Shown here in pieces: positions 27,261-48,960 of a stretch of DNA of 64,000 bases. Source of the stretch: Candidatus Omnitrophota bacterium (GTDB lineage Bacteria; Omnitrophota; Gorgyraeia; Pluralincolimonadales; Pluralincolimonadaceae); assembly GCA_003141835.1 (NCBI GenBank), contig PLNR01000002.1, positions 78,026-142,025 of the forward strand, read 5' to 3'. Made by a program: the position numbers and the translations under genes. A model generated the notes under the pieces. That model was not told the origin of the DNA, made no database searches, and worked only from the letters and a program-made list of their open reading frames with translations. The number at the start of each line of letters is the position of its first letter. The first letter of the stretch is position 1.

Positions 27261-28721
27261 ATGATCTTAATAAATCCAAAATCAACGAGGTTCGGGATAT
27301 TTGAGAGATACGTCCCGCTCAGCGTCCCTATCGGCGTAGGTTGTCTCGCAGGTTATCTTTTGCAGCACGGCAGAAAAGCTGAGATAATAGACGAGCATAT
27401 CGAACCCCTGTCTAAAGAACTGTTGGATAAAGCGCTAGAGGGGGTCTCTCCGCCGTATATTTTTGGCATATCGACTTTAACTGCCTGCGCTCAAAGAAGT
27501 TATAGTATCTCAAGAGAAATAAAAAACCGGTATCCGGATTCAAAGGTCGTTTTGGGCGGGATACATCCTACGGTCCTTCCTGACGAAGTCCTGGGGGTAG
27601 ATACTGTCGATTTTGCCGTAAGGGGCGAAGCAGAGAAGATCCTCCTGGAGCTGTATGACGCCATAAAAAATAATAAGGACTATTCAAAGATAAAAGGGCT
27701 GTCATATAAGAACGGCGGCAAGCTTGCCCATAACCCGCCCGCGGAACTGCCGGCCCTGGACGATTTCCCCCCGTTCCCCTACCATCTTTTCAAGAATGAC
27801 CGCGGAAAATACAATTTCGGTTTCATAGCCAGCTCAAGAGGGTGCCCTTATGACTGCATTTTTTGCAGCCAGAGGGTAATATCCGGGCAGAAATTCCGCT
27901 ATGTTCCCGAAGAGATGGTGATCGGCGAGATAGATGAGCTCATTAATAAGCACGGGCAGACGCACATCAATTTCGTCGACGACAACTTTACCGCGAACAA
28001 GCAAAGGATATTCCGACTGTGCGAACTGATGATAAAGAACGGATTTCACGAGAAGGCGACCTTCGATTGCCAGACGAGGGCTGACGCGGTCAACGACGAG
28101 ATCCTGGCGCTGTTGAAAAAAGCAGGCTTCAGGGTCATCAATTACGGCCTCGAGACAGCCTCAGAACGGCTTATGGTGATGTTAAATAAGAAAGAGACCG
28201 TAGCCGACAATATCGCCGCGGTGAAACTGGCGAAGAAACATGGCTTAAGGGTCTCGGGGACTTTTATCTTCGGACTTCCCACGGAAACAAAGGAAGAGAG
28301 GCGGCAGGCTTACGAGTTGGCCAAGAAGCTGGACCTTGATTATGTCAGGTTTAATAACGCGACCCCTTATCCGGGCACGAGGTTATACGAAATGGCGAAA
28401 GAAGAGGGGCGCCTCTTCGTAGATGATGGATGGGCCAACCTTAATGCATGCGCGTCGCTGGTCCAGGACTCGATAACAGAGTCGAGGTTGCCTTATGTGC
28501 CCAAAGGTTGCGACGAGAAAGAGCTGAAAAAAGATATCATCAGGGCCAACCTGCTTTTTTCGCTCAGGCCCAAAAGGGTGCTTCGCCTGCTCACCAAAAG
28601 GATCGGGCCTGCCGGCTGGTTCTATCTCCCTCCACGGTGGTATTTAAGCTCTGAAGAATGGCGTTGTCTTATAAAACTGGGATGTAATTTATTTAAGTCG
28701 TTGGTGAAAGCATATAGCTAA
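27261..28721 (+). CDS. B12-binding (class B) radical SAM enzyme, number 1.
   Basis: N-terminal cobalamin-binding domain pattern. CxxxCxxC cluster CPYDCIFC. 486 aa. Confidence 0.8.
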   Translation: MILINPKSTRFGIFERYVPLSVPIGVGCLAGYLLQHGRKAEIIDEHIEPLSKELLDKALEGVSPPYIFGISTLTACAQRSYSISREIKNRYPDSKVVLGGIHPTVLPDEVLGVDTVDFAVRGEAEKILLELYDAIKNNKDYSKIKGLSYKNGGKLAHNPPAELPALDDFPPFPYHLFKNDRGKYNFGFIASSRGCPYDCIFCSQRVISGQKFRYVPEEMVIGEIDELINKHGQTHINFVDDNFTANKQRIFRLCELMIKNGFHEKATFDCQTRADAVNDEILALLKKAGFRVINYGLETASERLMVMLNKKETVADNIAAVKLAKKHGLRVSGTFIFGLPTETKEERRQAYELAKKLDLDYVRFNNATPYPGTRLYEMAKEEGRLFVDDGWANLNACASLVQDSITESRLPYVPKGCDEKELKKDIIRANLLFSLRPKRVLRLLTKRIGPAGWFYLPPRWYLSSEEWRCLIKLGCNLFKSLVKAYS

Positions 28722-28722
28722 A

Positions 28723-29421
28723 ATGCCATTACTTACGGTGATAATACCCGTTTATAATGAAGTAAACACATTAAAAAGCATCTTAGAAAAAGTAAATTCC
28801 GTGGATTTAGATAAGGAGATCATCGTGGTCGATGATGGCTCTTCCGACGGTACGAGAAAACTGCTGGGTGAGATCAAAAGCGATAGTATGAAGATAATCT
28901 ACCATGCCAAAAACAAGGGGAAAGGCGCTTCTTTTTTGACGGGCCTTGCAAATGCCAAGGGTGAATTTGTCATACCGCAGGACGCCGACTTAGAGTACGA
29001 TCCGCAAGATCACGTGGCTTTAGTCGATTACGCCCTGAAAAACAACTTAGCAGCGGTGTACGGGTCCCGTTTTCTAAAAACATGGAGATGCACTTATCTC
29101 TGGCACTATCTTGTAAATAGATTCCTTACGATTTTTACGAATATCCTTTTCGGGTCTTCCTTAACCGACATGGAAACCTGCTATAAGCTTATAAGGCTGG
29201 ACCTGGTAAGGGGGTTGGACCTTCAATCCAGCGGGTTTGAAATAGAGGCGGAGATAACCGGTAAGCTCCTCAAAAAAGGCCATAAAATAGCCGAGATCCC
29301 CATATCTTATAAGCCCCGTTTTGGCGATCAAGGCAAAAAAATTGGCTGGAAAGACGGCGTAAGCACCCTATTATGCCTTATTAAATTACGATTAAAAAAT
29401 GACCAGAACCATAAACCCTAA
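28723..29421 (+). CDS. GT2 glycosyltransferase, polyprenol-phosphate sugar synthase (DPM1/ArnC)-like.
   Basis: VIIPVYNE...VVDDGSSDGT...DADL (DxD). 232 aa, soluble. Confidence 0.75.
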   Translation: MPLLTVIIPVYNEVNTLKSILEKVNSVDLDKEIIVVDDGSSDGTRKLLGEIKSDSMKIIYHAKNKGKGASFLTGLANAKGEFVIPQDADLEYDPQDHVALVDYALKNNLAAVYGSRFLKTWRCTYLWHYLVNRFLTIFTNILFGSSLTDMETCYKLIRLDLVRGLDLQSSGFEIEAEITGKLLKKGHKIAEIPISYKPRFGDQGKKIGWKDGVSTLLCLIKLRLKNDQNHKP

Positions 29422-30454
29422 GCTTTTTACAAGATTCTGCGTTAATTTCAGGTATGCCGTTAGGCTTAACAAGCCCCTCCTGACGGCCCGCCTGATCAAA
29501 ACGTATTTAGCGGTCCTGTTATTTAAAAAAAGGCCGCTTAGGTACGTAGATTTTGCGATAGGATACGATTGTAATCTTAAGTGCGAACACTGCTTTGCAA
29601 CCGCCCTGCGAAACGATTCCCGGAGACGGCTAACCCTTTCGGAGCACAAGAGGGTAGTAAAAGAAGCCATGAGACTGGGCGCGGTCAACTTTTCATTTCA
29701 AGGCGGAGAACCAATCTTATACACGGAGTTGCACGATTACATCAAGAATACTTACCCCTCGCAAAACCTCATTTCGGTAACAACTAACGCCACCCTGCTG
29801 AATGAACGGAATATACGTGAATTAAAACGCTGCGGAGTGGATATATTGACGATAAGCCTGGACAGCGCCATCGCGGAAGAACACGACGGATTTCGCGGTG
29901 TCCAGGGAACTTTTGACAAGGTCATGAATAGTGTTAAGCTTGCTTTAAAAAATGGGATGAACGTTACGCTTGGAGGCGTCGCCTCGCACAAAAATATTCG
30001 GAGCAAAGGGCTTATTGATTTAATAGAACTGGCCCACCGTTTAAATGTCATTATATTTCTAGCGCTTGCGGTACCGATCGGGAGGTGGGCAGACTACAGG
30101 GAGATACTGCTCACGGATGAAGACCGGGAATATCTTTATGCCCTTGTCAGGGAATACCCGCTTTTGAGGACCGATTTTGAGGCAAATTATGTTCATTACG
30201 GATGCGGCGCCGTAAAAGAGATACTTTATCTTACGCCATACGGCGATGTGCTGGCCTGCCCGTTTATACACGTTTCACTCGGCAATATATCTGAGGAAAG
30301 CCTGGAAAGCATCAGAGAAAAAGCGCTTCGCGATCCCTATTTCGGGAATTATCACAAATTATGCCTGGCTGCGGAAGACGCCGGATTCATGGAAAAATAT
30401 TCAGGAAGCTTTTATGGTCGTGACGGGAAGGCACGCGCGTTTGGGGAGTCATGA
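29399..30454 (+). CDS. Radical SAM enzyme with a C-terminal SPASM/twitch-type auxiliary cluster domain, number 1.
   Basis: CNLKCEHC. C-terminal Cys-rich segment (HYGCGAVKEILYLTPYGDVLACPF). 351 aa. Confidence 0.7.
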   Translation: MTRTINPKLFTRFCVNFRYAVRLNKPLLTARLIKTYLAVLLFKKRPLRYVDFAIGYDCNLKCEHCFATALRNDSRRRLTLSEHKRVVKEAMRLGAVNFSFQGGEPILYTELHDYIKNTYPSQNLISVTTNATLLNERNIRELKRCGVDILTISLDSAIAEEHDGFRGVQGTFDKVMNSVKLALKNGMNVTLGGVASHKNIRSKGLIDLIELAHRLNVIIFLALAVPIGRWADYREILLTDEDREYLYALVREYPLLRTDFEANYVHYGCGAVKEILYLTPYGDVLACPFIHVSLGNISEESLESIREKALRDPYFGNYHKLCLAAEDAGFMEKYSGSFYGRDGKARAFGES

Positions 30455-31440
30455 AAAGACGCATATTTATAACAGGCGCTGGCGGATTTATTGGTTCGGC
30501 TTTAGCAAGGCGATTATCGGCCGAGGGGCATGATCTCGTTTTATTTCTGCGCGCGAATGAACGCTATCTGGGCCTTGACGGCATCCAGGCGGCTAAAGAA
30601 TACGGCGACGTTTCAGATGGCCATGGTAAAATCATGGATGCCATGAAAGGTTGCGATCTCGTATATCATTGCGCCTCTAAGATATCGTTTAACAGGTTCA
30701 ATTATGCCGAATCATATCGCATAAATGTTTTGGGCACAAGAAATGTTTTAGATGCCGCTTACCGAAATGGCATAAAAAAGTTCGCTTATATCAGCGCCTG
30801 TGCCGTTTTTGGATTCGCGAAACAGAAAGATATTATCGATGAGCGCTCCCGCTACGCGGTCAAAAAGATAAATACATATGCGTATACGAAAAAACTGGCC
30901 GAGGAAGAAGTCAGGAACTATTGCTCCAAGGGCCTGGATGCGGTTATCGTAAACCCATGCACTGTATATGGGCAGGGGGACAGGAAGCTTAATTCCGGCG
31001 CCATCATAAAAACTGTTTATCATAATAAACTTAGGTTCGCCCCACCCGGGGGGACCACCGTCATATCAATTGATGACGCGGTTGAGGGATTGATCACGGC
31101 GCTTGATAAGGGACGTAAAGGAGAAAATTATATACTCGCAAGCGAGCATATGGAATATATAGACCTTTTAAATATTATTGCGAAGATTACGGGGGCACGG
31201 CGTATTTCCGGGAAGATCCCCTCATTCTTTTATTATCCCGCCGTATTCGGAGCGGCGCTGATAGAGCTTTTTGATAGGAGGTCCGATTTCATAACGCCTC
31301 AGATAGTGAAAGAGCTGTTCGGATACAAATATTACAGCTCTTCCAAGGCAACCGCTGAACTGGGCTGGAGGCCGAAAGTTAAAATTGGCGAGGCGATACA
31401 AAAGGCCTTTATCTTTTATAGGGACCAGGGGTTGCTATGA
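30451..31440 (+). CDS. NAD-dependent sugar epimerase/dehydratase (extended SDR).
   Basis: GAGGFIGSALARRL Rossmann motif and YxxxK catalytic dyad (YAYTKKL). 329 aa. Confidence 0.8.
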   Translation: MKRRIFITGAGGFIGSALARRLSAEGHDLVLFLRANERYLGLDGIQAAKEYGDVSDGHGKIMDAMKGCDLVYHCASKISFNRFNYAESYRINVLGTRNVLDAAYRNGIKKFAYISACAVFGFAKQKDIIDERSRYAVKKINTYAYTKKLAEEEVRNYCSKGLDAVIVNPCTVYGQGDRKLNSGAIIKTVYHNKLRFAPPGGTTVISIDDAVEGLITALDKGRKGENYILASEHMEYIDLLNIIAKITGARRISGKIPSFFYYPAVFGAALIELFDRRSDFITPQIVKELFGYKYYSSSKATAELGWRPKVKIGEAIQKAFIFYRDQGLL

Positions 31441-31483
31441 ACGCAGGGCCGGGACGTAAATAACAAGGAAAAAGAGGGTAAGC

Positions 31484-32677
31484 ATGTTCACGACCACATC
31501 GGTTTATTTTTTACTTTTATTTCTTATTTTCTGGAACTACTGCGGTTATCTTATCCTGCTCTGTGTCGTATATTTCCTGAACAAAAAGGGGCCCGCGCAA
31601 AATAATGCCGGGGACGATTCTTTAAAAGTAGCGGTTCTCGTTCCTTGCTACAATGAGGAAGGGTACGCGTCGCAGAAGGCCGAAAACACCAAAGCCCTTA
31701 ATTACAACAGTGAAAGGCTGGAGGTGTTCTTTCTTAACGGGCTTTCCACGGATAATACGGGCGCAGAGATCAAAAAAGCAATAGAAGGACGCCCGAATTT
31801 CCACATCATAGAAACGGGATGCGTAGGTAAGATCAACCAGCTTAATGTGGGGCTTTCCGGCATAAAAAACGACGTGGATATCGTCGTATGCACCGATATG
31901 GATACCTTACTTGCCCCGGATTGCCTGCTTCAGTTAGGCGCTGTCTTCAAGTCAGACGCCAGGGTCGCGGCGGCAGGCGCGAACATAACCCCTGAAAAGG
32001 CGATCGATATAGAAGAGATGCACTGGAGCGACCAGAATTTTTTCCGGATACTTGAAAGCGTTGCCCTTACTTCTTCCATAGTAGTTGCGCCATGTTACGC
32101 CTTCAGGAGAGGCACGATAGACAGGTTTCCCGACGATTGCGTCGCCGACGATATTTATATCGCCTTCAAGGCGAACACGGATGGCCACATAGTTAAATAC
32201 GTGGAATCGGCGGCAGGCCGTGAACTGAGAGTACCCCGCACGTTCTCCGAATATTTCTCCCACAAGTTCCGCAAGGGGAACGCGTACATGATAGAGCTTT
32301 TGCGTTTTTTCTACCGCATGCCGCATATGTCCGGCTGGTGGAAGATGATCTACATAACAAAATTTCTGCAAGTGGTAATAATGCCGTGGCTGATCCCATA
32401 CTTCCTGCTGTCATCGCTCTCCTTGCTTCTAAGCGGATGGGGGTTGGCGCAGATCCCCGTGATGGGAATAATATTTTTGTTCATCTCCCTGGTAGCGACT
32501 TCGTCAATAATAAGGACGGAAGGAAGCAAGTTCTATAAGAATAAACGCCTCAAGATAGGGCTGAGGCCCCTGGTCTTCCTGATCAATAATTTTATACTGA
32601 TAGTAATAGGCTTGAGCTACCCATTTTACAAACAGGACAGCGCGTATTCAAAACTGGGGAAGGACAGGGGCTTATGA
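31484..32677 (+). CDS. Membrane-bound GT2 glycosyltransferase.
   Basis: N-terminal TM segment. GT2 core (VLVPCYNEE, DMD, the conserved D's). Four C-terminal TM helices. 397 aa. Confidence 0.7.
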   Translation: MFTTTSVYFLLLFLIFWNYCGYLILLCVVYFLNKKGPAQNNAGDDSLKVAVLVPCYNEEGYASQKAENTKALNYNSERLEVFFLNGLSTDNTGAEIKKAIEGRPNFHIIETGCVGKINQLNVGLSGIKNDVDIVVCTDMDTLLAPDCLLQLGAVFKSDARVAAAGANITPEKAIDIEEMHWSDQNFFRILESVALTSSIVVAPCYAFRRGTIDRFPDDCVADDIYIAFKANTDGHIVKYVESAAGRELRVPRTFSEYFSHKFRKGNAYMIELLRFFYRMPHMSGWWKMIYITKFLQVVIMPWLIPYFLLSSLSLLLSGWGLAQIPVMGIIFLFISLVATSSIIRTEGSKFYKNKRLKIGLRPLVFLINNFILIVIGLSYPFYKQDSAYSKLGKDRGL

Positions 32678-34074
32678 GTAAGATACTTCTGCTGAGCCCT
32701 CCGTACCTGCCGGAGTATATGCGCAACGCAAGGTGCGACTTCGTCTCCTTATCGGCAACGCAGTGGTACCCGATCTTATTGGGTTATTGCGGCGCATATT
32801 TGGAAGGCAAAGGTCACGAAGTTAAACTTATTGATGCACCAAGCCAGCGCCTCAACCATGAGCAGGCGCGCAAGATCGCAACAGATTACAGGCCGGATTT
32901 GCTGGTTTTATATACCGGCTTAATGAGCGAGAAGAATGACCTGGAATTTACCGATTCCCTGCTGGAAAAATTAAAATGCGACGCGGTCATCGTTGGGCCA
33001 TACGCTTCTATCGATCCCGAAGGGACGCTTGGCCGTGCGCGGTCCATTAATAAGTTAGTCGCGGGTGAGTTTGAATATCCGGTCGGCGAGGTGGCCGCAA
33101 GGGGAAAAGCGCAGGGAATAAGGAACCTGTTATATAAGGAGAACGGAAAGGTGGTCCGCAATCCCGCGCGGCCGTATCTCGGCACTAAAGAACTTGACGC
33201 AATGCCTTTTGTCTCGCGTTTTTTCCGCGGCCACATTGATATTTACCGATATAAGACCCCGTCCGAACCGTACCCTTTTATGGATATCATGACCGGGCGC
33301 GGGTGTAAATGGGGATTATGCACTTATTGCCTTTGGGTGCATACTTTCGTAAAGGGGAGCTGCTATAATTTACGCAGTATCGCAAATGTCATGGATGAGC
33401 TCCATTTTATTGAGCGCGATATGCCAGCGGTGCGCTCCGTAATGATCCAGGATGACACTTTCACGCAGGAACGGGCGGCTGAATTTTGCGAAGCCAAAAT
33501 AAGGGAGGGCATCAAGATCCCCTGGTCCTGCTATACCAGGGCCGACCTGGACCGCGAAGTATTAAAACTAATGAAAAGGTCCGGATGCCGTAATCTGCAC
33601 GTAGGTTATGAATCCGCCTCAGAGCGGGTGCTCACATTGATAAAAAAGGGATTGACCGTAGAGAGGATGACAAAATTCACCGAAGACGCGAAGCACTCGG
33701 GTTTGCGTATCCACGGTGATTTTGCCTTGGGTTTTCCCGAAGAGACCGTTGAGGATGCCGAAAAGACCATCGAATGGGCTTACAGGCTCAATCCCGATAC
33801 CGCGCAGTTCCAGCTCATGATCCCTTACCCGGGGACGCCTTTTTACGAGCTTATGGTGAAGAACAAATGGTTGAATGCCTGCGGTCAGCCGGATATGCCA
33901 AAATTCAGCAATGAACAGATACGTATGATGGCCAAGAAGGCTTACCGCCGGTTTTACCTGAGCCCGCGGTATATTTGCAAATGCCTAAGGCACCCGAGGG
34001 ACCATTTTTTTAACAGGCTAAAGACAATAAGAAGGGCCGTTCCGGCCATGTTTTGGAAGAAATGGGAGGTTTGA
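32674..34074 (+). CDS. B12-binding radical SAM enzyme, number 2.
   Basis: B12-domain N-terminus (MSKILLLSPPYLP...). Variant cluster motif CKWGLCTYC. 466 aa. Confidence 0.75.
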   Translation: MSKILLLSPPYLPEYMRNARCDFVSLSATQWYPILLGYCGAYLEGKGHEVKLIDAPSQRLNHEQARKIATDYRPDLLVLYTGLMSEKNDLEFTDSLLEKLKCDAVIVGPYASIDPEGTLGRARSINKLVAGEFEYPVGEVAARGKAQGIRNLLYKENGKVVRNPARPYLGTKELDAMPFVSRFFRGHIDIYRYKTPSEPYPFMDIMTGRGCKWGLCTYCLWVHTFVKGSCYNLRSIANVMDELHFIERDMPAVRSVMIQDDTFTQERAAEFCEAKIREGIKIPWSCYTRADLDREVLKLMKRSGCRNLHVGYESASERVLTLIKKGLTVERMTKFTEDAKHSGLRIHGDFALGFPEETVEDAEKTIEWAYRLNPDTAQFQLMIPYPGTPFYELMVKNKWLNACGQPDMPKFSNEQIRMMAKKAYRRFYLSPRYICKCLRHPRDHFFNRLKTIRRAVPAMFWKKWEV

Positions 34075-36095
34075 TGAAAAAGGCGGTCTCTCCTTTCATA
34101 TTAGTGGGCTATATCTCTATTTTAGTTTTTCTTGTTTATTGGGGATATAACCATTCGTTCTGGACGCAATGCGATCCCACCCTTGTGCCTCAGAATGAAC
34201 AAGCCAGTTATGACGCCTTCGGCCTCTATACTTATGCCAAAGTGGTACACAGGGAACACATCCATCCCCAAAGGGTCTTTTCTACATTATGGGGAGAACT
34301 GCCGTTTTACGTTTACTCCATGGGTATCGGCGTATTCGGCGAACGGTTTTCCAGCATCAGGGAAGTCTTTGCCTTATTCAGCGGATTATGGGGGGCGGTA
34401 ATATTTTTGATCGTTTGGCTAGCGACAAAAAGACCGACGCTTTCTTTTTTTGTAGCTTTGATCTTTATCCCGTTTTCCGGGCATGTGAATTTCCACGCTA
34501 ACCGGGGTTACGCCCATTTTTATACTTTTATATTCCAGGCGCTGTCGTTGTATTTTATGCTGCTTTATTCCAAAAGGAAAAGAAGATGGTTGTTAGCGGC
34601 CGTCGGCCTGATACAGGGGATCTCTTTCGGGTTTAAGTATGAACTGTCGTTACTCGGATTATCGGCGGCGCTGATGGTGCTGTATGCCCTCGAGACCGTC
34701 GAAGCATATAATTACGTAATAACGGAAAGCGGGCATATCGGCTGCGGGCTAAAATACCGGGCATTGAGGATAGCCAAGTTTTTGTCCCTGTTCCTCGTTT
34801 TTGTAGCCAGTTTTTACTTTGTCCGTTTAGGGTTTTTATCCTACCTTTTACTTGTTTTTTGGATAGGTTGTTTTGCGATGTTGCTCTTTGAATTAAGATT
34901 GATGCGGGCTATCCGGCAGCAACCGGACAAACCCGGAGCGCCAGGCAGGCCGTATAACGGCATCTCCGGCCTGGGGAAGGATATTTTCGCTTTAGTAGCG
35001 CCGTTTGCGTTGGTCATCGTGTTGTTATTTGTACATATGTGGCAGGCGACCAACTTTGAAGTGGCAAGGAATTATTTTATCCAATTAACGAATACCTCAA
35101 GCCAAATTGCCCAGATGAATCTTTCCTCTTTGGCTAATCAGGCTGATTACAACTTAATGTATTTTTTATCCAGCCATCCATTTACGCTTCCGCAGATCGT
35201 TACCTGGTTTTTTGGGGCGTTCCTGGCTTATTGGGTGCTGTTTTTCATTAAAGATATGATCAGCAGGGGGATCTTAATAGGATTCTCGCTATTCGCCGTT
35301 TTTGCCGTATTAAAGATCGACCAGATCTATATCCTTTCAATGTTCTATTTTATATCCGCGGTCAGTTTATTATTATGGGCGTATTTTTTGGACCTGGTTC
35401 GCAGGTCGGAAATAAAGCGCCTGCCTCCGGAACTTATCGTTTATCTCTGTTTTATGGCTGTCGGGTCTTTAAGCCTTTTGAGGGAATCGGCAAGTTTCGA
35501 CCTTAATATATGGTCCATGCTCCCCGCGTTGATCGGGAGCCTTGCTTTTGTCGTATATTCGCCGTCCATCGGCAGTAATAAATCCACTTATCTTAAGACG
35601 ATGTGCCTGGCAGCCGTATTTTATTTTGCGGCGGTAGCGTGGTTCCAGATAGAAGCGGTAAACATGGTTTTCTACAGGTTCATGCCACAAGGAAGGCTTA
35701 TGGCCATAGACCGCGAATTCGATCTTTTGATCCCAAAGGAAACAGCCGTCCCCCTCAGGGAAATGAAAGAATACTTCCAGGCCAATCTCGGTAAGGATGA
35801 GTACATTTTTATTTTCAGCGACCACATTTACCCTTATATCTTCACGCCGGGCGGGCTTCCTTGCGAGTACCTTGCGAGCTTCCAGGTTCCCGACAAGAAG
35901 AGGGAGGACAGGATGCTTTTATTATTAAGGACTAAAAAAATAAAATACGTCTTATTCTCATGCGGGATGGCGGCCTATAATTCAGAATTGGCAGCCAGGA
36001 ATTATCCGAAGCTTTACGATTTTATTTCCAAAAATTACGTAAAAACAGACAAGCAATTCCTGAATTTCGTCGTATATAGGAATACTAACACATAA
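34053..36095 (+). CDS. Large polytopic membrane protein of unknown function. GT-C-like glycosyltransferase or polymerase is possible.
   Basis: 680 aa, at least 14 hydrophobic segments, no recognisable soluble domain. Confidence 0.4.
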   Translation: MEEMGGLMKKAVSPFILVGYISILVFLVYWGYNHSFWTQCDPTLVPQNEQASYDAFGLYTYAKVVHREHIHPQRVFSTLWGELPFYVYSMGIGVFGERFSSIREVFALFSGLWGAVIFLIVWLATKRPTLSFFVALIFIPFSGHVNFHANRGYAHFYTFIFQALSLYFMLLYSKRKRRWLLAAVGLIQGISFGFKYELSLLGLSAALMVLYALETVEAYNYVITESGHIGCGLKYRALRIAKFLSLFLVFVASFYFVRLGFLSYLLLVFWIGCFAMLLFELRLMRAIRQQPDKPGAPGRPYNGISGLGKDIFALVAPFALVIVLLFVHMWQATNFEVARNYFIQLTNTSSQIAQMNLSSLANQADYNLMYFLSSHPFTLPQIVTWFFGAFLAYWVLFFIKDMISRGILIGFSLFAVFAVLKIDQIYILSMFYFISAVSLLLWAYFLDLVRRSEIKRLPPELIVYLCFMAVGSLSLLRESASFDLNIWSMLPALIGSLAFVVYSPSIGSNKSTYLKTMCLAAVFYFAAVAWFQIEAVNMVFYRFMPQGRLMAIDREFDLLIPKETAVPLREMKEYFQANLGKDEYIFIFSDHIYPYIFTPGGLPCEYLASFQVPDKKREDRMLLLLRTKKIKYVLFSCGMAAYNSELAARNYPKLYDFISKNYVKTDKQFLNFVVYRNTNT

Positions 36096-38278
36096 TGTTC
36101 AAGATATTATTGGTCAATCCGCCGCGGGAACATGTGGTTAAACCCGATCTTCCGGGGACTATCAATGTTGATCTGGGCGAAATATCTTCGTTCCCCCCGA
36201 TGGGGCTGATGTATCTGGCCCAAGCGGTGCGCCAGCATGACCGAAATTTCAGTGTAAAGATATTAGATGCGGTACCGGATAAGATCTCTTATGGCCGGAT
36301 CGCGGAAATAGCCTTTGACTATTCCCCGCAGGTCATAGGGATCACGGCCCATACGTATACTTTTTATGACGTTTGGAAAACGGCATCCGAGCTGAAGAAG
36401 CGCTTACCCGGGGTGCCTATCGTCATCGGAGGATCGCACATGTATATCTTCCCCCGGGAAACCATGACACACAACTGTTTTGACTTCGGTGTCAGCGGGG
36501 ACGGAGAGGATGTTTTTTCGGGTTTATGCGGATCTTTATATAAGAACATCGAGATAAGGTCATCACCGGGATTATTTATAAGGAAAGGCGATGAGGTTAC
36601 TGGGTCCGGCACGGCCCTGGTCAGCGACCTCGACCTGGTCAAATTACCGGCAATAGACCTTATAGACCACGACAAGTATTACAGTACGATAGGTCAGCAA
36701 AAAGCTGTCGGAACGATCTGTTCATCAAGGGGATGCCCTTTCCGGTGCACGTTTTGCCAGGTCCCGAAAGTCCCGTTCAGGACCCGGTCTATTAAAAATG
36801 TCATACTTGAGATCAAGGAATACGGCAAGGCCGGCGTAGATGATTTTTTCTTTTTTGATGACCTTTTTAACATGACCAAAGGCCGCGTCGTTGAATTTTG
36901 CAATGAAGTACTGGATAATAAGTTAAAGATCGGTTTTATGTTCAGGGGGCGGATAGACCAGATAGACGATGAGATGCTGGAGCTCGCGCGCAAAGCGGGT
37001 TGCCACAGCATTTCTGTCGGGATAGAAGATGCCACGGATGAAGGCCTTAAGGCCATAAAGAAGAACATCACGATAAAGCAGGCTTTTGATTGCGTACGCC
37101 TTATACGTAAATACGGGATACGTTGTTCAACGAATTGGATCATCGGTTTTCCGCACCATAAAACAGCAGGCGATCTTGAACATTTATTGAATACGGCAAT
37201 AAAGATGGATTCCGACTATGCGCAGTTCAGCGTATTACAATGCCTGCCGGGCAGCGAGATCTACGAGCAGGCGGTCAGGGAGAAAGGAATAGACCCGGAA
37301 GCATGGCGTTCGTATGTATTAAATCCCGTGGATAAATTCGAACCATTAATATGGGAAAAGCATTTTACCAAAGCAGAGCTTTTTAAATTCTACGAGCACT
37401 GTTATAAAAAGTATTATTTCAGGCTTAAAGTATTTGCTCGGGAGATGCTTAATCTCAAGAGCGCAGACGAGTTTTTGCTCAAAGTCCGTGCGTTTAAGAC
37501 GGTATTTTTCAAGAAGAGGGAAGAGATAACGAGGGAGAGGGTCACTGAGGCCAACCGCATCTTTTACGACGCAGTCGCCGAAGATTATGAAAAGATAGAC
37601 GGGAGGCGGAACGCAGGGCTTATGAGGTGGCTCAGGTCAAACCTCGAGGGCATCCGTAAGATCTCTCCTGGAGGCAGGTTATTGGATATCGGGTCCGGCA
37701 GCGGTTTGGTTGGCCGCTGCGCAGAAGGGATATTTGAATACAGGGCCGGCATCGACGTGTCAAAGGCGATAGTAGACGCCAACCGTAATTCGTACGATTT
37801 TGTAATAGAAGGCGATCTTAATAAGTTGCCGTTTGAATCGGAAAGCTTCGACGTTATAACATGTTTTGCGGTCCTGCACCATTTACATGGTTTTGAATCG
37901 CTGGTCTCAGAGGTATCCAGGGTCCTGAAGCCGGGGGGAGTGTTTTATGCCGACCACGATATGGATAAAAAATTTAGCGAGAATTTCTACCTACCGCTCG
38001 CGATTTACAGAAGACTGAAAAATGCAAAAGGCCAATACGGTAAAATAGCGGGCAAGGCCGCCTATGACACGTATGATTATGCCGAATGGCAGGCGGACGG
38101 CATAAAATCCGGGGAGATCGTGAAATTGTTCCGGGAGAAAGGGTTTTCCGTCTCCGTCAAATATCACTGGTATGGGCTCTCTTTTTTCACTGACATTGTT
38201 TTTTCCAAAATGCCGTATCCACGAGGATTCGCGCCGGTATTCTCGATACAGGCGGTTAAAACAGGTAAGCGGCCATGA
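36095..38278 (+). CDS. B12-binding radical SAM enzyme (number 3) fused to a C-terminal class I SAM-dependent methyltransferase domain.
   Basis: CPFRCTFC in the rSAM core. The C-terminal roughly 230 aa carry the Rossmann MTase motif I LLDIGSGSGLVG and the post-I acidic residue. 727 aa. Confidence 0.75.
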   Translation: MFKILLVNPPREHVVKPDLPGTINVDLGEISSFPPMGLMYLAQAVRQHDRNFSVKILDAVPDKISYGRIAEIAFDYSPQVIGITAHTYTFYDVWKTASELKKRLPGVPIVIGGSHMYIFPRETMTHNCFDFGVSGDGEDVFSGLCGSLYKNIEIRSSPGLFIRKGDEVTGSGTALVSDLDLVKLPAIDLIDHDKYYSTIGQQKAVGTICSSRGCPFRCTFCQVPKVPFRTRSIKNVILEIKEYGKAGVDDFFFFDDLFNMTKGRVVEFCNEVLDNKLKIGFMFRGRIDQIDDEMLELARKAGCHSISVGIEDATDEGLKAIKKNITIKQAFDCVRLIRKYGIRCSTNWIIGFPHHKTAGDLEHLLNTAIKMDSDYAQFSVLQCLPGSEIYEQAVREKGIDPEAWRSYVLNPVDKFEPLIWEKHFTKAELFKFYEHCYKKYYFRLKVFAREMLNLKSADEFLLKVRAFKTVFFKKREEITRERVTEANRIFYDAVAEDYEKIDGRRNAGLMRWLRSNLEGIRKISPGGRLLDIGSGSGLVGRCAEGIFEYRAGIDVSKAIVDANRNSYDFVIEGDLNKLPFESESFDVITCFAVLHHLHGFESLVSEVSRVLKPGGVFYADHDMDKKFSENFYLPLAIYRRLKNAKGQYGKIAGKAAYDTYDYAEWQADGIKSGEIVKLFREKGFSVSVKYHWYGLSFFTDIVFSKMPYPRGFAPVFSIQAVKTGKRP

Positions 38279-39309
38279 TGAGTGCCATGAAAACGGTAAA
38301 ATTCGGATGTCGACTTCTGAAGGCGAAGATCTTGCGCAGGAATATCCCGTTCGTAGTGCAATTTTCGGTAACTAACAGATGCAACTATAAATGCAGGTAT
38401 TGCTACGCGAAATATTACGAACGGAAGACTGCCGAATTAGACTTAAGGCAGATATTTAAGATGGTAGATGACTTGTGCCGGATAGGGACAGTCAGGATCA
38501 ACCTTGTCGGAGGCGAGCCGTTGTTAAGAAAGGATATAGGAGAAATAATAGATTACATCACGGGTAAGGGGATTGAGTGCGCGATGACAAGCAACGGTTC
38601 TTTAGTCAGGGAAAAGATAAACGATATAAGGAAGCTGGACCTGCTATGCCTGAGCCTGGACGGCGATAAAGCGGCGAATGATTATAACAGGCATGCCGGG
38701 TCATATGATAAGGTCATGGAAGCGATCGACAGCGCGCTTGAGCGAGGCATAAAGGTCCAGATCGCCACGGTATTGACAAAAGAGAGCATTCCATCAATAG
38801 ATTTCCTGGTAAATTTAGCAAATAAGAAGAAGATCAAGATTGCGTTTACAACCCCGATCACGCAGGCATCCGAAGGCGGAAGCAAAGCCATCTCAAATAT
38901 CCCTTCGGACAGAGATCTGAAGGCCGCCATCAAGAAAATAATCAGCCTAAAGAGGATGAAAAACCCAATACTCTTCTCGTACAAACCTTACAAGTTCGCT
39001 TTAGATTGGCCTATCGGATACGATATCGATAAGATCATAGGCAAAAAACCGGGTTTTAAGTTCCCGAAATGCTATGCCGGGAAATATTGGGGGATCATAG
39101 ATGTCAACGGTGATGTCTATCCATGCCCCGCCCTGGTAGGGGTAGTGAAACCGCATAACTGCATAGAAAAGGGATTTAAAGAGGCATGGCGGGAAGTCTC
39201 AAAACACGCATGTTTCACGTGCCATCTCCCGTGCAATAACGAGTTCAATTACCTGTTCGCGTTAGATCCGGAGACCATAATAGACACATGCAGGCACAAC
39301 GGGAAGTAA
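38275..39309 (+). CDS. Radical SAM/SPASM enzyme, number 2.
   Basis: CNYKCRYC. C-terminal 7-Cys SPASM-like segment (CYAGKYW...CPALVG...CIEK...CFTCHLPC). 344 aa. Confidence 0.75.
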   Translation: MMSAMKTVKFGCRLLKAKILRRNIPFVVQFSVTNRCNYKCRYCYAKYYERKTAELDLRQIFKMVDDLCRIGTVRINLVGGEPLLRKDIGEIIDYITGKGIECAMTSNGSLVREKINDIRKLDLLCLSLDGDKAANDYNRHAGSYDKVMEAIDSALERGIKVQIATVLTKESIPSIDFLVNLANKKKIKIAFTTPITQASEGGSKAISNIPSDRDLKAAIKKIISLKRMKNPILFSYKPYKFALDWPIGYDIDKIIGKKPGFKFPKCYAGKYWGIIDVNGDVYPCPALVGVVKPHNCIEKGFKEAWREVSKHACFTCHLPCNNEFNYLFALDPETIIDTCRHNGK

Positions 39310-40817
39310 AGGCGATGAAGGTGTTGCTGATAAAGCCTTACCTTACCATAAATTCCGAAGATTGCGAAACGTACGGGTTATTCCCGCCGATGGGCCTTGC
39401 TTATCTGGCAAGCGTGTTAGAAAGGGACGGATTTGATGTGAGGATCCTGGATTGCCAGATAACAAAATCCGGAAAGAGCAATGCAGGATTAGGCGATTCT
39501 GTAAGAATGGGGATATCAGATAGCGAAATAAGGAAATATATAAACGATTTCAAGCCGAGTATAATTGGCATCTCCAGCAATTTTACCAGTTTTTATTTGG
39601 ACCCCATCAATGTTGCAAAGCTGTCAAAAGGTGCCTGCCCTACGGCCAAGATCGTGCTGGGCGGTGCGCATGCTACGGTTGCTTACAGGGATACGTTGAA
39701 TGTAAAAGAGGTGGATATCGTCGTCAAGGGCGATGGGGAGATGCCTTTCCTGGAGTTGCTTCAGAAGATCCGGGAAGGAAGACATTATCACGATACCTGG
39801 AATATTGCGGCGAAGGACGAGACCGGGAATATAATCGACAATCCCCTGAGAGAGCCGATGACGAAGCTGGACGATCTGCCGTTCCCGGCTTATCATTTGC
39901 TGGACATGGACCGATATATACACCAGCACGGCAAGAACTTCGCTTTTTATTACGCTTCCCCGGCCGGTTTTATCATGACTCAAAGGGGATGCCCCTATAA
40001 TTGCATATTTTGTTCCACGTCGAAGTTCTTTAAAAAATACAGGGAAAGAAGCCCCAAGAACGTGGTGGACGAGATAGAATTCCTGGTCAAGGAATATAAA
40101 ATACGCGAGATCCATATATTAGACGACTGTTTTAACGCCAATGCCGGACGGGTAAAAGAGATCTGCAGGGGCATGATCGACAGGGACCTAAAGATCTCAT
40201 GGCAAGTTGGGCAGGGTATGAGCATAACAAACCTTGACCGGGATTCCTTGAAGTTAATGGTAGAAAGCGGCCTGTACAGGATAGGTTTTTCGATAGAATC
40301 CGGCTCGCGCAAGACCCTTAAGTACATCAGGAAGGCCATGGACCTGGAACGGTCGCTGCAAATAATAGAACAGTGTAATTCCGTGGGGCTTTATACGCAC
40401 GGGAATTTTGTTATAGGCTTCCCCTATGAGACTGTAGAAGATGTCGGGGAAACCGTTGCGTTCATAATGAAGTCGAAACTGGATTTTATCAAACTTACCA
40501 TTTGCCAGCCCTTATCAGGAGCGGACATTTACCAGTCTTTTATCGACGCGGGGATCTTTGACGGCACTCCCAGGGACGGGAGCCATTACCTCCACACCCT
40601 GTACGACACCAAATTCTTAACTGCCTCGCAGCTGAATAATATCCGGACAGGGACCGTCAGGAAATTTTTTATCAATAAGATATTATGCGTATTCAGTGTC
40701 AACGGCCTCAGGTATTCGATCTGGCCGAAAGTCGGGTCGCCCGGGAAATTACGGTATTTTCTTAAAGTGAGTTTTAATATCCTGCGCTTGATAGTCTTAA
40801 GAAGGAATATCGCATAA
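39288..40817 (+). CDS. B12-binding radical SAM enzyme, number 4.
   Basis: MKVLLIKPYL... B12 domain. CPYNCIFC. 509 aa. Confidence 0.8.
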   Translation: MQAQREVKAMKVLLIKPYLTINSEDCETYGLFPPMGLAYLASVLERDGFDVRILDCQITKSGKSNAGLGDSVRMGISDSEIRKYINDFKPSIIGISSNFTSFYLDPINVAKLSKGACPTAKIVLGGAHATVAYRDTLNVKEVDIVVKGDGEMPFLELLQKIREGRHYHDTWNIAAKDETGNIIDNPLREPMTKLDDLPFPAYHLLDMDRYIHQHGKNFAFYYASPAGFIMTQRGCPYNCIFCSTSKFFKKYRERSPKNVVDEIEFLVKEYKIREIHILDDCFNANAGRVKEICRGMIDRDLKISWQVGQGMSITNLDRDSLKLMVESGLYRIGFSIESGSRKTLKYIRKAMDLERSLQIIEQCNSVGLYTHGNFVIGFPYETVEDVGETVAFIMKSKLDFIKLTICQPLSGADIYQSFIDAGIFDGTPRDGSHYLHTLYDTKFLTASQLNNIRTGTVRKFFINKILCVFSVNGLRYSIWPKVGSPGKLRYFLKVSFNILRLIVLRRNIA

Positions 40818-40818
40818 C

Positions 40819-41817
40819 ATGAAGAACCTGGATAAGAGGCTGTATTTGGCCTCACGTTATCTGTTGAGGAAAACCGACTGCAATATGCCTCCACTCAGGA
40901 TGGGCGTAGAGCTTACAAATAACTGTAACCTGGAATGTATCATGTGCCCCAGGGGTGGGATGAGCCGGAAGATAGGGAACATGGATATTGCCGCCTTCAA
41001 GAGGGTAATAGACCAGGGGAAACAGGGCCTGGAGATGGTTTCCCTGCAGGACGCCGGAGAGTCGACATTGAACCCGGGCCTGGCCGAAATGATACGATAT
41101 TGCAAAAAGAACGGAGTCCGGACATTATTATCGACGAATGCTACGCTTTTGCGCGGGAAACTGGCTGAGGACCTGGTCTCGTCCGGTCTTGATTACATCA
41201 TTTTCGCCTTAGACGGGGCCACAAAAGAAACATATGAAAAAATAAGGATAGGGGCAGATTACGATGCCGTAGTGTCAAATATAAAAAATTTTATTACTGA
41301 AAAGAAACGGCGGAACGTCAGGCTATTTTGCACTTTGCAGTGTATCTATATGGATGATACGGAGAAGGAGATCAGGCAGTTCGTGCGCATGTGGAATATA
41401 CCGGGCGTTGACGCGGTAAGGATCCGCCAGATCACGCACGGCGTCGACACCGGCGACCCGAAGCAAAATAAATATTCCAATATCGATTACAAACTGCCTT
41501 GTTATTGGTTATGGAGCGACCCGTATGTTAAGTGGGACGGCACAGTGGTCCCGTGCTGCCAGGACGTTAACGCAGATTACGTCCTCGGGAATATCATAGA
41601 CAAACCGATGAGCGAAATATGGAACTGCCAAAAGATGCAGGATCTGCGCAATATGCACCTGAAAGGCGGGATCGGCCTGGTGCCCTTATGTAAAAATTGC
41701 AATATGTATAAGCCTAAATGGCCTTTTATTTTAGGCAGTTCATTTGTCGGCATAATGCAATTGCAAAAGTTAGTCCCGTTTATTGAAAGTGTAATATGCA
41801 AGAGAAGGTACTCGTGA
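40819..41817 (+). CDS. Radical SAM/SPASM enzyme, number 3.
   Basis: CNLECIMC. C-terminal Cys-rich SPASM (LPCYW...PCCQD...CQK...CKNC). 332 aa. Confidence 0.75.
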   Translation: MKNLDKRLYLASRYLLRKTDCNMPPLRMGVELTNNCNLECIMCPRGGMSRKIGNMDIAAFKRVIDQGKQGLEMVSLQDAGESTLNPGLAEMIRYCKKNGVRTLLSTNATLLRGKLAEDLVSSGLDYIIFALDGATKETYEKIRIGADYDAVVSNIKNFITEKKRRNVRLFCTLQCIYMDDTEKEIRQFVRMWNIPGVDAVRIRQITHGVDTGDPKQNKYSNIDYKLPCYWLWSDPYVKWDGTVVPCCQDVNADYVLGNIIDKPMSEIWNCQKMQDLRNMHLKGGIGLVPLCKNCNMYKPKWPFILGSSFVGIMQLQKLVPFIESVICKRRYS

Positions 41818-43199
41818 AATTCTTACTTGTCACGGCGCTTGACAAAAAATTCGTCAAACTTTGGGCTTGCCAGGAGACTTCGCATATAGGGAGCATGCTT
41901 CCCCCGTCTGACCTGTGCAGCATCGCCTCGAACATCCGGTCAAACGGCCACGATGCCGCCATTTTAGATCTGCGCCTGTTCGCGGATCCCGTCGGTACAT
42001 ACGTCCGTAAATTAAAAGAATACGGCCCGGATGCCGTTATCCTGAATATATCGACAACTACGGCAAACGATGATTTTAGGATCGTCTCTTTGACCCCTGA
42101 TCCGGTAAAAAAAATAGCTTTTGGGACCCATGCCATAGCCGAACCCGGCGATTGTTTTCAACACGGAGTAGATTTCATCCTGGCCGGAGACCCGGAAAAG
42201 TGTATCATGGAACTGGCTGATCACGGCCTCGCGCCGGATAAAACCAGGGGTGTTATTTCAAAAGATACGGTTATTGAAGGGTTTAAGCCCCTTTACGAAG
42301 AAGACCTGGACCATTTCCCGTTGCCTGCCCTTGACCTGGTCGACCTGGACAGGTATCATACCCTTTTCGTAAAGAACAGGAGATTTTCCGTCATACTCGG
42401 CAGCCGGGGCTGCCATTTCGAGTGCAACTTTTGCCTTATGCCGTGTTTATTCGGGGCGAAAATAAGGCAAAGAAGCGCGAAAAATATCATAGATGAAATG
42501 AAGCGCGATTTCGAGATGTTCAAGGTAAGGGATTTTGTTTTTTTGGACGCCACATTCAACAGCAGCGAGTCGCGGGTGTTCGACATCTGCGAAGAGATCG
42601 ACAGGAATAAGATGAATTTCGTAAGATGGTCATGCAACATGCGCGTTTCTCCCGTATCTGGAGCTTTATTAAAAGCAATGAAAAGATCGGGATGCCAAAG
42701 GATATTCTATGGAGTGGAAGATGCCGGCTTATTGAACGAGATAAATAAGAATATAACCTTCGAGCAGATAAAAAAGGCATTCTATCTCACCAGGAAACAC
42801 AGGATAGAAGCAGGAGCTTTTTTGATGCTATTCCCGAACGGGGCCGTGAGCGAAGCAGATTACACCGCGAAGATAGTACGATTGATTAAAGAGATAAAGG
42901 CGGACATGTTCCAGTGTAATGTTGCAATACCGTTCCCCGGTACGGCGATGTATAAGAAAATGAAAAATGATCTGTCAGGCAACTGGTCTCTTTACGACCC
43001 CAACGGGACATGCCTTCCCTATAGTTCACCGGTAGACCTCGTATCAGTAAAGAACAGCGTGTATTTAAAAATAGCATTATCCAGCCCGCGTATAGTATTA
43101 AGGACATTATTAACCGCGAACAGGGAAGACCTTATTTATGTCATTAAGAAATTTATCGCCATGATCAGGAAGGGCAAGAAGGGAAGATGGAAAAAATAG
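41796..43199 (+). CDS. B12-binding radical SAM enzyme, number 5.
   Basis: B12-domain N-terminus. CHFECNFC. 467 aa. Confidence 0.75.
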   Translation: MQEKVLVKFLLVTALDKKFVKLWACQETSHIGSMLPPSDLCSIASNIRSNGHDAAILDLRLFADPVGTYVRKLKEYGPDAVILNISTTTANDDFRIVSLTPDPVKKIAFGTHAIAEPGDCFQHGVDFILAGDPEKCIMELADHGLAPDKTRGVISKDTVIEGFKPLYEEDLDHFPLPALDLVDLDRYHTLFVKNRRFSVILGSRGCHFECNFCLMPCLFGAKIRQRSAKNIIDEMKRDFEMFKVRDFVFLDATFNSSESRVFDICEEIDRNKMNFVRWSCNMRVSPVSGALLKAMKRSGCQRIFYGVEDAGLLNEINKNITFEQIKKAFYLTRKHRIEAGAFLMLFPNGAVSEADYTAKIVRLIKEIKADMFQCNVAIPFPGTAMYKKMKNDLSGNWSLYDPNGTCLPYSSPVDLVSVKNSVYLKIALSSPRIVLRTLLTANREDLIYVIKKFIAMIRKGKKGRWKK

Positions 43200-45052: not shown

Positions 45053-45058
45053 GAAGAT

Positions 45059-46924: not shown

Positions 46925-46949
46925 AGGCTTAATTAGAAGGAAAAGGCGC

Positions 46950-48959: not shown

Positions 48960-48960
48960 G

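Follow-up and report, generated by a model that had tools for sequence, protein, structure and literature searches.

A recent gene fusion joining a B12-domain radical SAM enzyme to a class I methyltransferase in a radical SAM-rich Omnitrophota operon

In the window (the whole 64,000-nt stretch of Candidatus Omnitrophota DNA that was analysed), a single 727-aa open reading frame is a real and recent fusion of a radical SAM (rSAM) enzyme carrying a B12-binding domain with a class I SAM methyltransferase, set within an rSAM-rich tailoring operon. Its product most likely carries out two pathway steps that are normally split between two proteins, a reading to which we assign a probability of roughly 60%, since both halves look intact and under selection and the fused methyltransferase is the only one of its family in the window. 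The features of the fused gene, all on the + strand, are as follows.

36095..38278, +, fused gene (B12-binding, radical SAM and class I methyltransferase), 727 aa (ORF list, translation, Pfam)
36191..36523, +, B12-binding domain (Rossmann-like), aa 33-143 (PF02310, 61.3 bits against a cutoff of 32.1)
36722..37159, +, radical SAM core, aa 210-355 (PF04055, 75.6 bits against a cutoff of 29.5)
36734-36757, +, CX3CX2C cluster motif CPFRCTFC, aa 214-221, in the radical SAM core
37160..37516, +, C-terminal helical domain of the rSAM half, aa 356-474 (alignment with P0002 of locus L001 and with loci L088 and L089; AF2 helices)
37517..37519, +, fusion point, codon 475, AGG (Arg) where the ancestral methyltransferase starts with ATG (sequences, protein and DNA alignments)
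37517..38275, +, class I SAM methyltransferase domain, aa 475-727 (Pfam, AF2)
37679-37714, +, methyltransferase motif I LLDIGSGSGLVG, aa 529-540 (translation)
37682-37948, +, Methyltransf_11 (PF08241), aa 530-618 (69.6 bits against a cutoff of 21.2)

The ORF starts with ATG and translates without internal stops; at its 5' end it shares 1 nt with the stop of the preceding gene, and at its 3' end its stop shares 4 nt with the start of the following one. The initial annotation had described one ORF holding a B12 domain, an rSAM core and a complete methyltransferase, and had proposed Pfam as the check. All three domains (B12-binding, Radical_SAM and Methyltransf_11) are recovered above the Pfam thresholds, and the C-terminal region is recognised as a methyltransferase, with PF13649, PF08242, PF13847 and PF13489 likewise above threshold. 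The motifs quoted there (CPFRCTFC, LLDIGSGSGLVG, DVSK and EGDLNKLPFESESFDVI) are all present in the translation, the last two in the methyltransferase region. Cysteines C214, C218 and C221 are invariant in two sets of homologues (n=33 and n=40). The methyltransferase half carries the SAM-binding signatures LLDIGSGSG (aa 529-537), GIDVS and EGDLNKLPF, and the aspartate and three glycines of its motif I DxGxGxG (D531, G533, G535 and G537) are invariant in 40 homologues; in the methyltransferase alignment (A4, 40 sequences) the invariant positions include D60, G62, G64, G66, D83 and S85.

The closest orthologous locus, L001, encodes a 478-aa rSAM protein (P0002) and, after a 10-nt gap, a separate 250-aa methyltransferase (P0121) in the +1 frame. 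These proteins, which have equivalents in L088 and L089, are about 83-84% and 66% identical to the respective halves of the fusion. Relative to L001, the window is short by 25 nt, the stretch that in L001 contains the end of the rSAM coding sequence, its TAA stop and the 10-nt spacer (DNA alignment A5), and the rSAM half stops 5 codons before the C-terminus of its orthologue. At codon 475 the fused frame is open, with stops in both other frames. The alignment shows the route to fusion: a deletion of ~25 nt took out the final codons and the stop of a BchE/HpnJ/AprD4-like B12-domain rSAM gene together with the spacer, and at the same time brought the downstream 250-aa Methyltransf_11 gene into frame, its old ATG now reading AGG. 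Judged from these sequences, the fused ORF is a young, lineage-specific merger of two adjacent genes. Production of a separate methyltransferase by internal translation was considered and rejected: no in-frame ATG, GTG or TTG lies between codons 461 and 510, and translation from M510 would leave out the conserved helix at the N-terminus.

The initial annotation had called the architecture unusual, and its relatives bear this out. For the methyltransferase half, the 120 best relatives are without exception stand-alone proteins of ~250 aa; for the whole protein, just 2 among its 120 best relatives are fused, the window's own protein excluded. Unlike the single ORF of the window, the unfused pairs are two genes in different frames, 1-13 nt apart, yet they share with it a neighbourhood of GT2, rSAM/SPASM, epimerase, B12-rSAM, methyltransferase, rSAM, B12-rSAM and SPASM genes. 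At L088 the rSAM gene is followed by the methyltransferase gene after 13 nt; at L089 the methyltransferase lies immediately 5' of the rSAM gene; at L002 it is about 5 kb off, still within the cluster; and at L007 it was not found within 8 kb of the rSAM gene. Every orthologous cluster inspected has one methyltransferase of the fusion's family on the same contig. Given that the methyltransferase gene may thus lie downstream, upstream or kilobases away, an obligate complex or consecutive action of the two proteins does not seem to be required. Both families, the B12-domain rSAM and the ~250-aa Methyltransf_11 proteins, span MAGs of Omnitrophota, Planctomycetota, Elusimicrobiota, Nitrospinota and Desulfovibrionales. 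As a background, 80 distant B12-rSAM loci (at most 33% identity) were taken among the matches listed, a set from which the window genome and its orthologues are absent; five of the 80 have a weak methyltransferase match, none adjoining or fused, and the nearest gap is 336 nt.

Three further sporadic fusions of this architecture, each rare, occur among the relatives inspected: the pair P0103 (750 aa) and P0111 (751 aa), P0271, and P0372. They have the same domain order as the window fusion and lie in clusters likewise rich in B12-rSAM and GT2 genes, and are 25-40% identical to it. In P0271 the junction is nearly the same and the methyltransferase is of the family found in the window fusion, whereas the methyltransferase of P0103 and P0111 belongs to another subfamily (no tblastn match). 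Since the nearest rSAM relatives of P0103 and P0111 are unfused, the fusions probably arose in independent events. P0103 and P0111 are both fused while only 65% identical to each other, which suggests that the fused state can persist.

That the fusion is artefactual, created by a sequencing or assembly error that joined two separate genes, was a concern of the initial annotation. The suspicion is fed by the two-gene arrangement of the closest relatives, by the fused protein forming a singleton cluster and by the DNA coming from a metagenome-assembled genome. However, a one-base error is ruled out, as it would take three coordinated differences: the TAA stop is gone, the length differs by a net 25 nt, which cancels the +1 offset, and AGG replaces ATG. 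Furthermore, a Logan assembly of SRR7151659, made independently, matches the fused sequence at 100% identity along 8,184 nt, the flanks diverge from L001 at a normal rate, the two halves have dN/dS values against L001 of 0.077 (rSAM) and 0.099 (methyltransferase), and similar fusions are known in other genomes. Because of the identical independent assembly and the low dN/dS of both halves, we regard an artefact as very improbable. The fusion is found on five contigs, which may all be from one sample. With its uninterrupted ORF, its recurrence in an independent assembly and its orthologues encoded as separate genes, it has the marks of a gene fusion of the Rosetta-stone type.

The dN/dS values, together with the retained catalytic signatures, point to purifying selection on both halves. 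They also bear on whether one half is dead, such that the methyltransferase would serve as a SAM/SAH-binding, regulatory or scaffold module, or the fusion itself would be an accident, neutral or mildly harmful, and heading for loss. The fusion does appear to be very young and limited to one lineage, the methyltransferase has diverged further from L001 than the rSAM half has, and in a related fusion (L090) the rSAM part is broken into two ORFs. Against this, every residue that is invariant across 40 stand-alone methyltransferases is retained in the fusion (DxGxGxG, the N-terminal N/Y/D/RR helix, HH and HD). The fused copy is also the sole member of its family in the window, none of the other operon proteins scanned having a methyltransferase domain, while each orthologous cluster inspected retains one per contig. 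Finally, the methyltransferase half, modelled on its own, gives a confident canonical class I fold (AF2, pLDDT 93.9, pTM 0.91). We therefore give little credence to a dead half and favour two working activities.

The model of the methyltransferase half matches >1,000 PDB methyltransferases at query-normalised TM scores of about 0.5-0.64 (best 0.6-0.64), consistent with a predicted seven-stranded Rossmann-like methyltransferase fold. In the full-length AF2 model, the multidomain model that the initial annotation had proposed, the B12-binding domain is well defined (pLDDT >90, with Foldseek matches to TsrM, MgmA, TokK, OxsB and CysS); in contrast, the junction has a pLDDT of about 50 and the inter-domain geometry is unreliable. 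That model was built from alignment A3, which is shallow over the methyltransferase half, and its confidence is low there. A joint MAFFT alignment (A2) of the fusion with rSAM-only and methyltransferase-only proteins was discarded, as it misaligned the methyltransferases onto the B12-binding domain. It had also been suggested that the class I domain would give a handle on the substrate. This expectation fails: the confident model finds no more than generic N-, O- and C-methyltransferases and thus does not reveal the substrate, and curated methyltransferase families with defined substrates all score below cutoff (DVU_1556, the best, 50 against 155; BioC 42 against 185; UbiE 35-40 against 158 or more). 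The idea that this domain methylates the cobalamin used by the rSAM half was set aside, because the methyltransferase is free-standing in relatives, at times several kb off, and class B enzymes methylate Cbl within their own active site (PMC12667779).

The N-terminal half, by sequence and predicted structure, appears to belong to the class B (B12-binding-domain) radical SAM subgroup and may bind cobalamin. It had been annotated as a class B methylase; the B12-domain rSAM part of that assignment holds up, while the methylase part is an assumption, as the half scores below every curated NCBIfam cutoff and its nearest solved relatives are mixed, comprising the methylases TsrM, MgmA, TokK and CysS and the non-methylases AprD4 and OxsB. 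AprD4 is a diol dehydratase that has a B12-binding domain but is Cbl-free, BchE is a cyclase, and HpnJ is a non-methylase that carries out a ring contraction. Among the non-methylase models, BchE gives the best score (172 bits against a cutoff of 481), with HpnJ at 137 against 578 and AprD4 at 79 against 500; the methylase models give 103 against 600 (PhpK), 96 against 650 (HpnR), 83 against 360 (the MgmA-type TIGR04014), 75 against 282 (rSAM_ocin_1) and 47 against 500 (Trp-2-C-methyltransferase).

Hence the rSAM half may not methylate, and the fusion may be real yet combine one ordinary methylation with a radical rearrangement of the AprD4, HpnJ, BchE or OxsB kind (dehydration, ring contraction, epimerisation or cyclisation). 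We hold this to be possible, if somewhat unlikely. In its favour, BchE and HpnJ outscore the methylase models PhpK and HpnR, and AprD4 is both the best sequence match among solved structures (phmmer, which also finds MgmA (9ccb), TsrM, TokK and OxsB) and the top structure by target-normalised TM score (0.76). In addition, the five rSAM paralogues of B12-domain type in the operon are just 26-30% identical to one another, a divergence that suggests diverse chemistries. On the other side, the B12-binding domain scores far above its Pfam cutoff, TsrM and MgmA head the Foldseek ranking by E-value, most enzymes of the cobalamin-dependent radical SAM class are methylases, and in CysF and CysS a class I methyltransferase is paired with a Cbl-rSAM methylase (PMC12667779). 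Given that the methylase identity of the rSAM half is assumed, two methylations of one substrate by the fusion are a plausible reading.

The gene lies in a large operon, next to which a divergent gene may also be part of the cluster.

27261..56574, +, host operon, 24 genes, closely packed or overlapping (ORF list, profile searches)
25583..27187, -, 534-aa protein with 10 TM segments and no Pfam matches, divergent, possibly part of the cluster (ORF list, TM prediction)

Eleven of the operon's genes, including the fused one, encode rSAM proteins. Five of these are of the B12-domain type, although the gene at 32674 has a sub-cutoff Pfam B12-binding match and the one at 41796 has none. The operon also encodes three GT2 and one GT9 glycosyltransferases, an HpnA-like NAD epimerase, a TPP-dependent E1 alpha/beta pair, two DUF2079 proteins, another 10-TM protein and a TPR protein. 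The small GT2 enzymes look like polyprenyl-phosphate sugar synthases, and the gene context also includes four polytopic membrane proteins whose topology is GT-C-like. This content suggests that the operon tailors a lipid-linked sugar. Because of the GT2 resemblance and the four membrane proteins, the substrate may tentatively be taken as a sugar on a nucleotide or polyprenyl phosphate, bound for the cell envelope. Matches of the neighbouring genes to curated NCBIfam models all fall below cutoff. In a comparison with the hopanoid genes HpnA, HpnI, HpnJ and HpnH, the epimerase resembles HpnA (203 bits, cutoff 368), a B12-rSAM immediately 3' of a membrane GT2 resembles HpnJ (316 bits, cutoff 578) and a further rSAM weakly resembles HpnH (below the cutoff of 225); the HpnJ-like paralogue is not the fused gene, and the window holds no squalene-hopene cyclase. 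Since the epimerase and one rSAM have such sub-threshold matches to HpnA and HpnJ, the substrate could also be a lipid.

Taken together, the preferred reading is that of one chain serving two steps of a pathway. The rSAM half would either transfer a methyl group to carbon by way of methylcobalamin or carry out a different radical reaction, the class I half would perform a conventional SN2 methylation of O, N or an activated C, and the fusion would enforce 1:1 expression and proximity of both activities. As the nearest relatives encode both proteins separately, usually as adjacent genes, what was gained is probably co-localisation, not a new enzyme type or chemistry. As Rosetta-stone evidence, the fusion would place a widespread uncharacterised pair, the BchE/HpnJ-like B12-domain rSAM and the ~250-aa Methyltransf_11 protein, in one pathway, and it offers one construct with which to probe both activities. 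The host operon, with its 11 rSAMs, polyprenyl-phosphate-type GT2s and membrane proteins of GT-C-like topology, is the more interesting object. Literature searches on class B rSAM fusions, on clusters of B12-rSAMs with glycosyltransferases, on DUF2079 with radical SAM and on Omnitrophota radical SAM returned nothing relevant.

Among known systems, the solved class B rSAMs (TsrM, MgmA, TokK, CysS, OxsB and AprD4) share with the fusion an N-terminal B12-binding Rossmann-like domain, a CX3CX2C TIM-barrel core and a helical C-terminal domain. Foldseek matches them at probability 1.0 and E-values of 1e-17 to 1e-22, with identities of only 12-19%. Unlike the fusion, they have no class I methyltransferase domain, and no PDB chain found by Foldseek covers both halves.

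A functional model for linking the two enzyme types, by analogy only, is found in cystobactamid tailoring, where the class I SAM O-methyltransferase CysF and then the Cbl-dependent rSAM methylase CysS act at the same position, the methoxy group being extended to ethoxy, isopropoxy and so on (PMC12667779). By this analogy, the fusion might be CysF and CysS in one chain, methylating and then radically extending a cell-envelope sugar, which we think unlikely. If so, the class I domain would put an O- or N-methyl on a nucleotide- or polyprenyl-phosphate-linked sugar, and the B12-rSAM would methylate that methyl or a neighbouring carbon, giving ethyl or isopropyl ethers or branched C-methyl sugars; with ten more rSAMs, the operon would make a surface glycan bearing many alkyl groups, a type undescribed in bacteria. 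CysF and CysS differ from the window fusion in being separate proteins that act on a carrier-bound aromatic acid, and CysS is 12-15% identical to it (Foldseek).

The gene at 36095-38278 on the forward strand is one ORF of 727 aa, which starts with ATG and has zero internal stops according to both the ORF list and the translation. With the Pfam gathering thresholds as the criterion for domain calls, the fused protein is laid out as follows:

aa 33-143, B12-binding domain (61 bits, above the gathering threshold)
aa 210-355, Radical_SAM domain (76 bits, above the gathering threshold)
aa 214-221, cluster motif CPFRCTFC
aa 529-540, methyltransferase motif I, LLDIGSGSGLVG
aa 530-618, Methyltransf_11 domain (70 bits, above the gathering threshold)

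Besides Methyltransf_11, four sister methyltransferase models pass the Pfam threshold in the C-terminal half. The three cysteines of CPFRCTFC are invariant in alignments of 33 and of 40 homologues, as are the DxGxGxG residues of motif I (D531, G533, G535 and G537) across 40 methyltransferase homologues. Thus, the ORF and motifs quoted in the initial annotation are correct as written, and the C-terminal region, for which it had proposed a Pfam check, is recognised as a methyltransferase above threshold.

Among 5.8 billion proteins, the closest whole-protein relatives, P0002 (83% identity) and P0003 (82%), are 476-478 aa long and have the B12 and radical SAM (rSAM) domains only. Of the best 120 whole-protein matches, the window's own protein, P0103 and P0111 are the only ones with a methyltransferase, and the best 120 relatives of the C-terminal half are all stand-alone proteins of ~250 aa (120/120). 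L001, the contig on which P0002 is encoded, shows synteny with the window. Its gene order is GT2, rSAM/SPASM, epimerase, 478-aa B12-rSAM, a 10-nt gap and the 250-aa methyltransferase, followed by a 345-aa rSAM, a 502-aa B12-rSAM and a SPASM rSAM; the methyltransferase is read in the +1 frame with respect to the rSAM. Direct comparison shows that 25 nt of L001 are absent from the window; they comprise the final codons of the rSAM gene, its TAA stop and the spacer. Codon 475 (nt 37517-37519) is AGG in the window versus the methyltransferase start ATG in L001, while the rest of the methyltransferase N-terminus is fully kept. Since that N-terminus is otherwise complete, the two enzymes are joined almost end to end, without an added linker.

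A sequencing error that joined two separate genes would give the same appearance. However, the fused ORF needs three coordinated differences, namely loss of the stop, a 25-nt change in length and loss of the start codon, so that a single sequencing error is insufficient; 25 nt is also 1 modulo 3, which corrects the frame offset relative to L001. Moreover, the Logan assembly of SRR7151659 is identical to the window across 8,184 nt, the entire gene included. Five contigs, possibly from one sample, carry the fused protein. Comparison with L001 gives dN/dS values of 0.077 (rSAM half) and 0.099 (methyltransferase half). The 25-nt difference, the identical Logan assembly and the dN/dS values together support, at the level of assembled sequence, the in-frame fusion proposed by the initial annotation, and the junction it had singled out for checking is assembled with neither frameshift nor stop. 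Separate translation of the complete methyltransferase was also considered and is ruled out, because no in-frame ATG, GTG or TTG lies between codons 461 and 510. Whereas each orthologous cluster keeps a methyltransferase of this family, the 64-kb window encodes none besides the fused domain.

Around a 64%-identical orthologue (L088), the rSAM gene is followed by a 13-nt gap and the methyltransferase, in the same order as in L001. Around a 62%-identical orthologue (L089, 4329-7468), the orthologous methyltransferase directly precedes the rSAM gene and a second, different one of 306 aa lies downstream of it, which indicates that the position of the methyltransferase is not fixed. At two further loci of unfused relatives, it lies ~5 kb from the rSAM gene inside the cluster (L002), or on the same contig with none within 8 kb (L007). 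In the fusion, the stop and spacer were lost with the 25 nt, the methyltransferase was brought in frame, and its ATG became AGG. In the nearest relatives, both enzymes are encoded by separate genes that usually adjoin each other; the fusion is hence a recent rearrangement of parts already known, not a new enzyme type.

When 1.84 billion representative proteins were searched by HMMER with a query made of the C-terminal part of the rSAM and the methyltransferase, only a few matched both query parts:

P0271, a 460-aa ORF, which aligns across the junction without a break (40% identity)
P0103, 750 aa
P0372, 787 aa, at 25% identity

In P0271 the junction is nearly as in the window, onto the same methyltransferase family. 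On its contig (L090, 3098-5273) the rSAM part is split into ORFs of 251 and 460 aa, a split that points to a frameshift or pseudogene, if it is not an assembly error of that contig. P0103 and P0111 are 65% identical and both fused, so this lineage has kept its fusion despite substantial divergence; their nearest rSAM relatives (≤63% identity) are unfused. The window's methyltransferase has no tblastn match in the P0103 and P0111 loci, and hence theirs belongs to a different subfamily. Since unfused relatives surround every fused form, parsimony suggests that the architecture has probably originated independently at least three times. A Foldseek structure search found no PDB chain spanning both halves, and our literature searches turned up no report of a fusion of this kind. 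Judged from sequence matches, the architecture is rare; the few proteins matching both parts and the uniformly stand-alone methyltransferase relatives bear out the earlier view of it as unusual.

The fused gene lies in an operon close to a chromosomal replication-origin neighbourhood, as listed here:

11462-25643, replication-origin neighbourhood: dnaA, dnaN, gyrB and gyrA (reverse); yidC, mnmG, parA and parB (forward)
19400-20291, gap between dnaA and yidC
25583-27187, reverse, divergent 10-TM protein
27261-56574, forward, operon of 24 tightly packed or overlapping genes (~29 kb), fused gene included
31484-32677, GT2 with four TM segments
32674-34074, forward, HpnJ-like B12-domain rSAM (316 bits; cutoff 578)
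43187-46924, forward, two tandem DUF2079 membrane paralogues of 621 aa, each with 7-9 predicted TM segments
48961-51002, forward, TPP-dependent, pyruvate-dehydrogenase-like E1 alpha/beta pair

At 90% identity, the window's GyrB clusters with proteins from Omnitrophica WOR_2 and Candidatus Omnitrophota MAGs. Elsewhere in the window, a 699-aa protein (5362-7461, reverse) has a c-di-GMP-binding PilZ domain at its N-terminus and a TIM barrel like that of glycoside hydrolase family 2, an unusual pairing, and a 591-aa protein (57144-58919, forward) that adjoins a nucleoside diphosphate kinase matches PEPCK_ATP only weakly and in part (55 bits).

The operon contains 11 rSAM genes, three GT2 genes (the other two small), one GT9 gene, an NAD epimerase (3-beta-HSD/HpnA-like), a TPR protein and a further 10-TM protein; none of its genes reaches a curated NCBIfam cutoff. 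Five of the 11 rSAM genes are of the B12-domain type, with a mutual identity of only 26-30%; of these five, the gene at 32674 has a Pfam B12-binding match that stays below cutoff, and the one at 41796 has none. The 32674-34074 gene has the cluster motif CX4CX2C (CKWGLCTYC) instead of the canonical CX3CX2C, and it directly follows the four-TM GT2, an order reminiscent of hpnI-hpnJ. The E1 pair is accompanied by neither E2 nor E3 genes in the operon. E1-like proteins have been proposed to attach two-carbon branches in some branched-sugar antibiotic pathways, and by analogy this pair could attach such a branch to a sugar.

The best matches of the two small GT2s are to polyprenyl- or dolichyl-phosphate sugar synthases (AglJ, PpgS, ArnC), all below cutoff, and four polytopic membrane proteins, counting the divergent one and the two DUF2079 proteins, have a GT-C-like topology. 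In the ArnC/ArnT, GtrB/GtrC and CsbB/YfhO systems, a small GT2 is paired with a polytopic transferase of the GT-C type, and a lipid-linked monosaccharide is built and then transferred outside the membrane. At equivalent places, the L088 and L089 clusters have YfhO or PMT_2 membrane proteins, and P0271 has a DegT aminotransferase and a Bac_transf initiating sugar-phosphate transferase as neighbours. No TM segment is predicted in the fused protein, which points to action on the cytoplasmic side, and we infer that it would act there on a nucleotide- or polyprenyl-phosphate-linked sugar. Given the sub-threshold HpnA-, HpnJ- and HpnH-like matches in the operon, the substrate may instead be a lipid (isoprenoid). 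Related clusters are present in many uncultured anaerobe lineages, and those of P0103 and P0111 (L004 and L006) are denser than the window's operon, with 7-8 consecutive B12-domain rSAM genes and interspersed GT2 genes.

The rSAM half reaches no curated NCBIfam cutoff, its best matches, BchE (172 bits, cutoff 481) and HpnJ (137 bits), included; further matches are to ApyD, a ladderane-associated B12 rSAM, BzaD, PhpK and HpnR. The solved structures closest in sequence are AprD4 (E = 9e-20), MgmA (9ccb), TsrM, TokK and OxsB. Its AF2 model (pLDDT mostly >90) superposes on these five and on CysS, with a target-normalised TM score of 0.76 for AprD4. This confident model and its superpositions place the rSAM half firmly in the B12-domain rSAM group; it is a putative methylase and a putative cobalamin binder. 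The earlier proposal of a class B methylase coupled to a second methylation on one substrate is therefore plausible as a whole, but its rSAM component falls below every curated cutoff.

The methyltransferase half is predicted with very high confidence to have a class I fold (pLDDT 93.9), and its structural neighbours (TM1293, Hvo_0019, PmtA, Coq5, MitM, LahSB, CouO/NovO and TleD) are mixed N-, O- and C-methyltransferases with query-normalised TM scores of ~0.5-0.64. With neighbours of this generic kind, the predicted fold does not allow the substrate class to be inferred, and the handle on the substrate that the methyltransferase had been expected to provide does not materialise. The main value of the fusion lies in the evidence that it gives for a functional link between two uncharacterised families; it also directs attention to the surrounding radical-SAM-rich glycan or glycolipid operon, which is arguably of more interest than the fusion itself. 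For the coupling of a class I methyltransferase with a Cbl-rSAM there is a documented precedent in CysF and CysS, where CysF, the class I enzyme, makes a methoxy group that CysS, the Cbl-rSAM, extends by radical methylation (PMC12667779).
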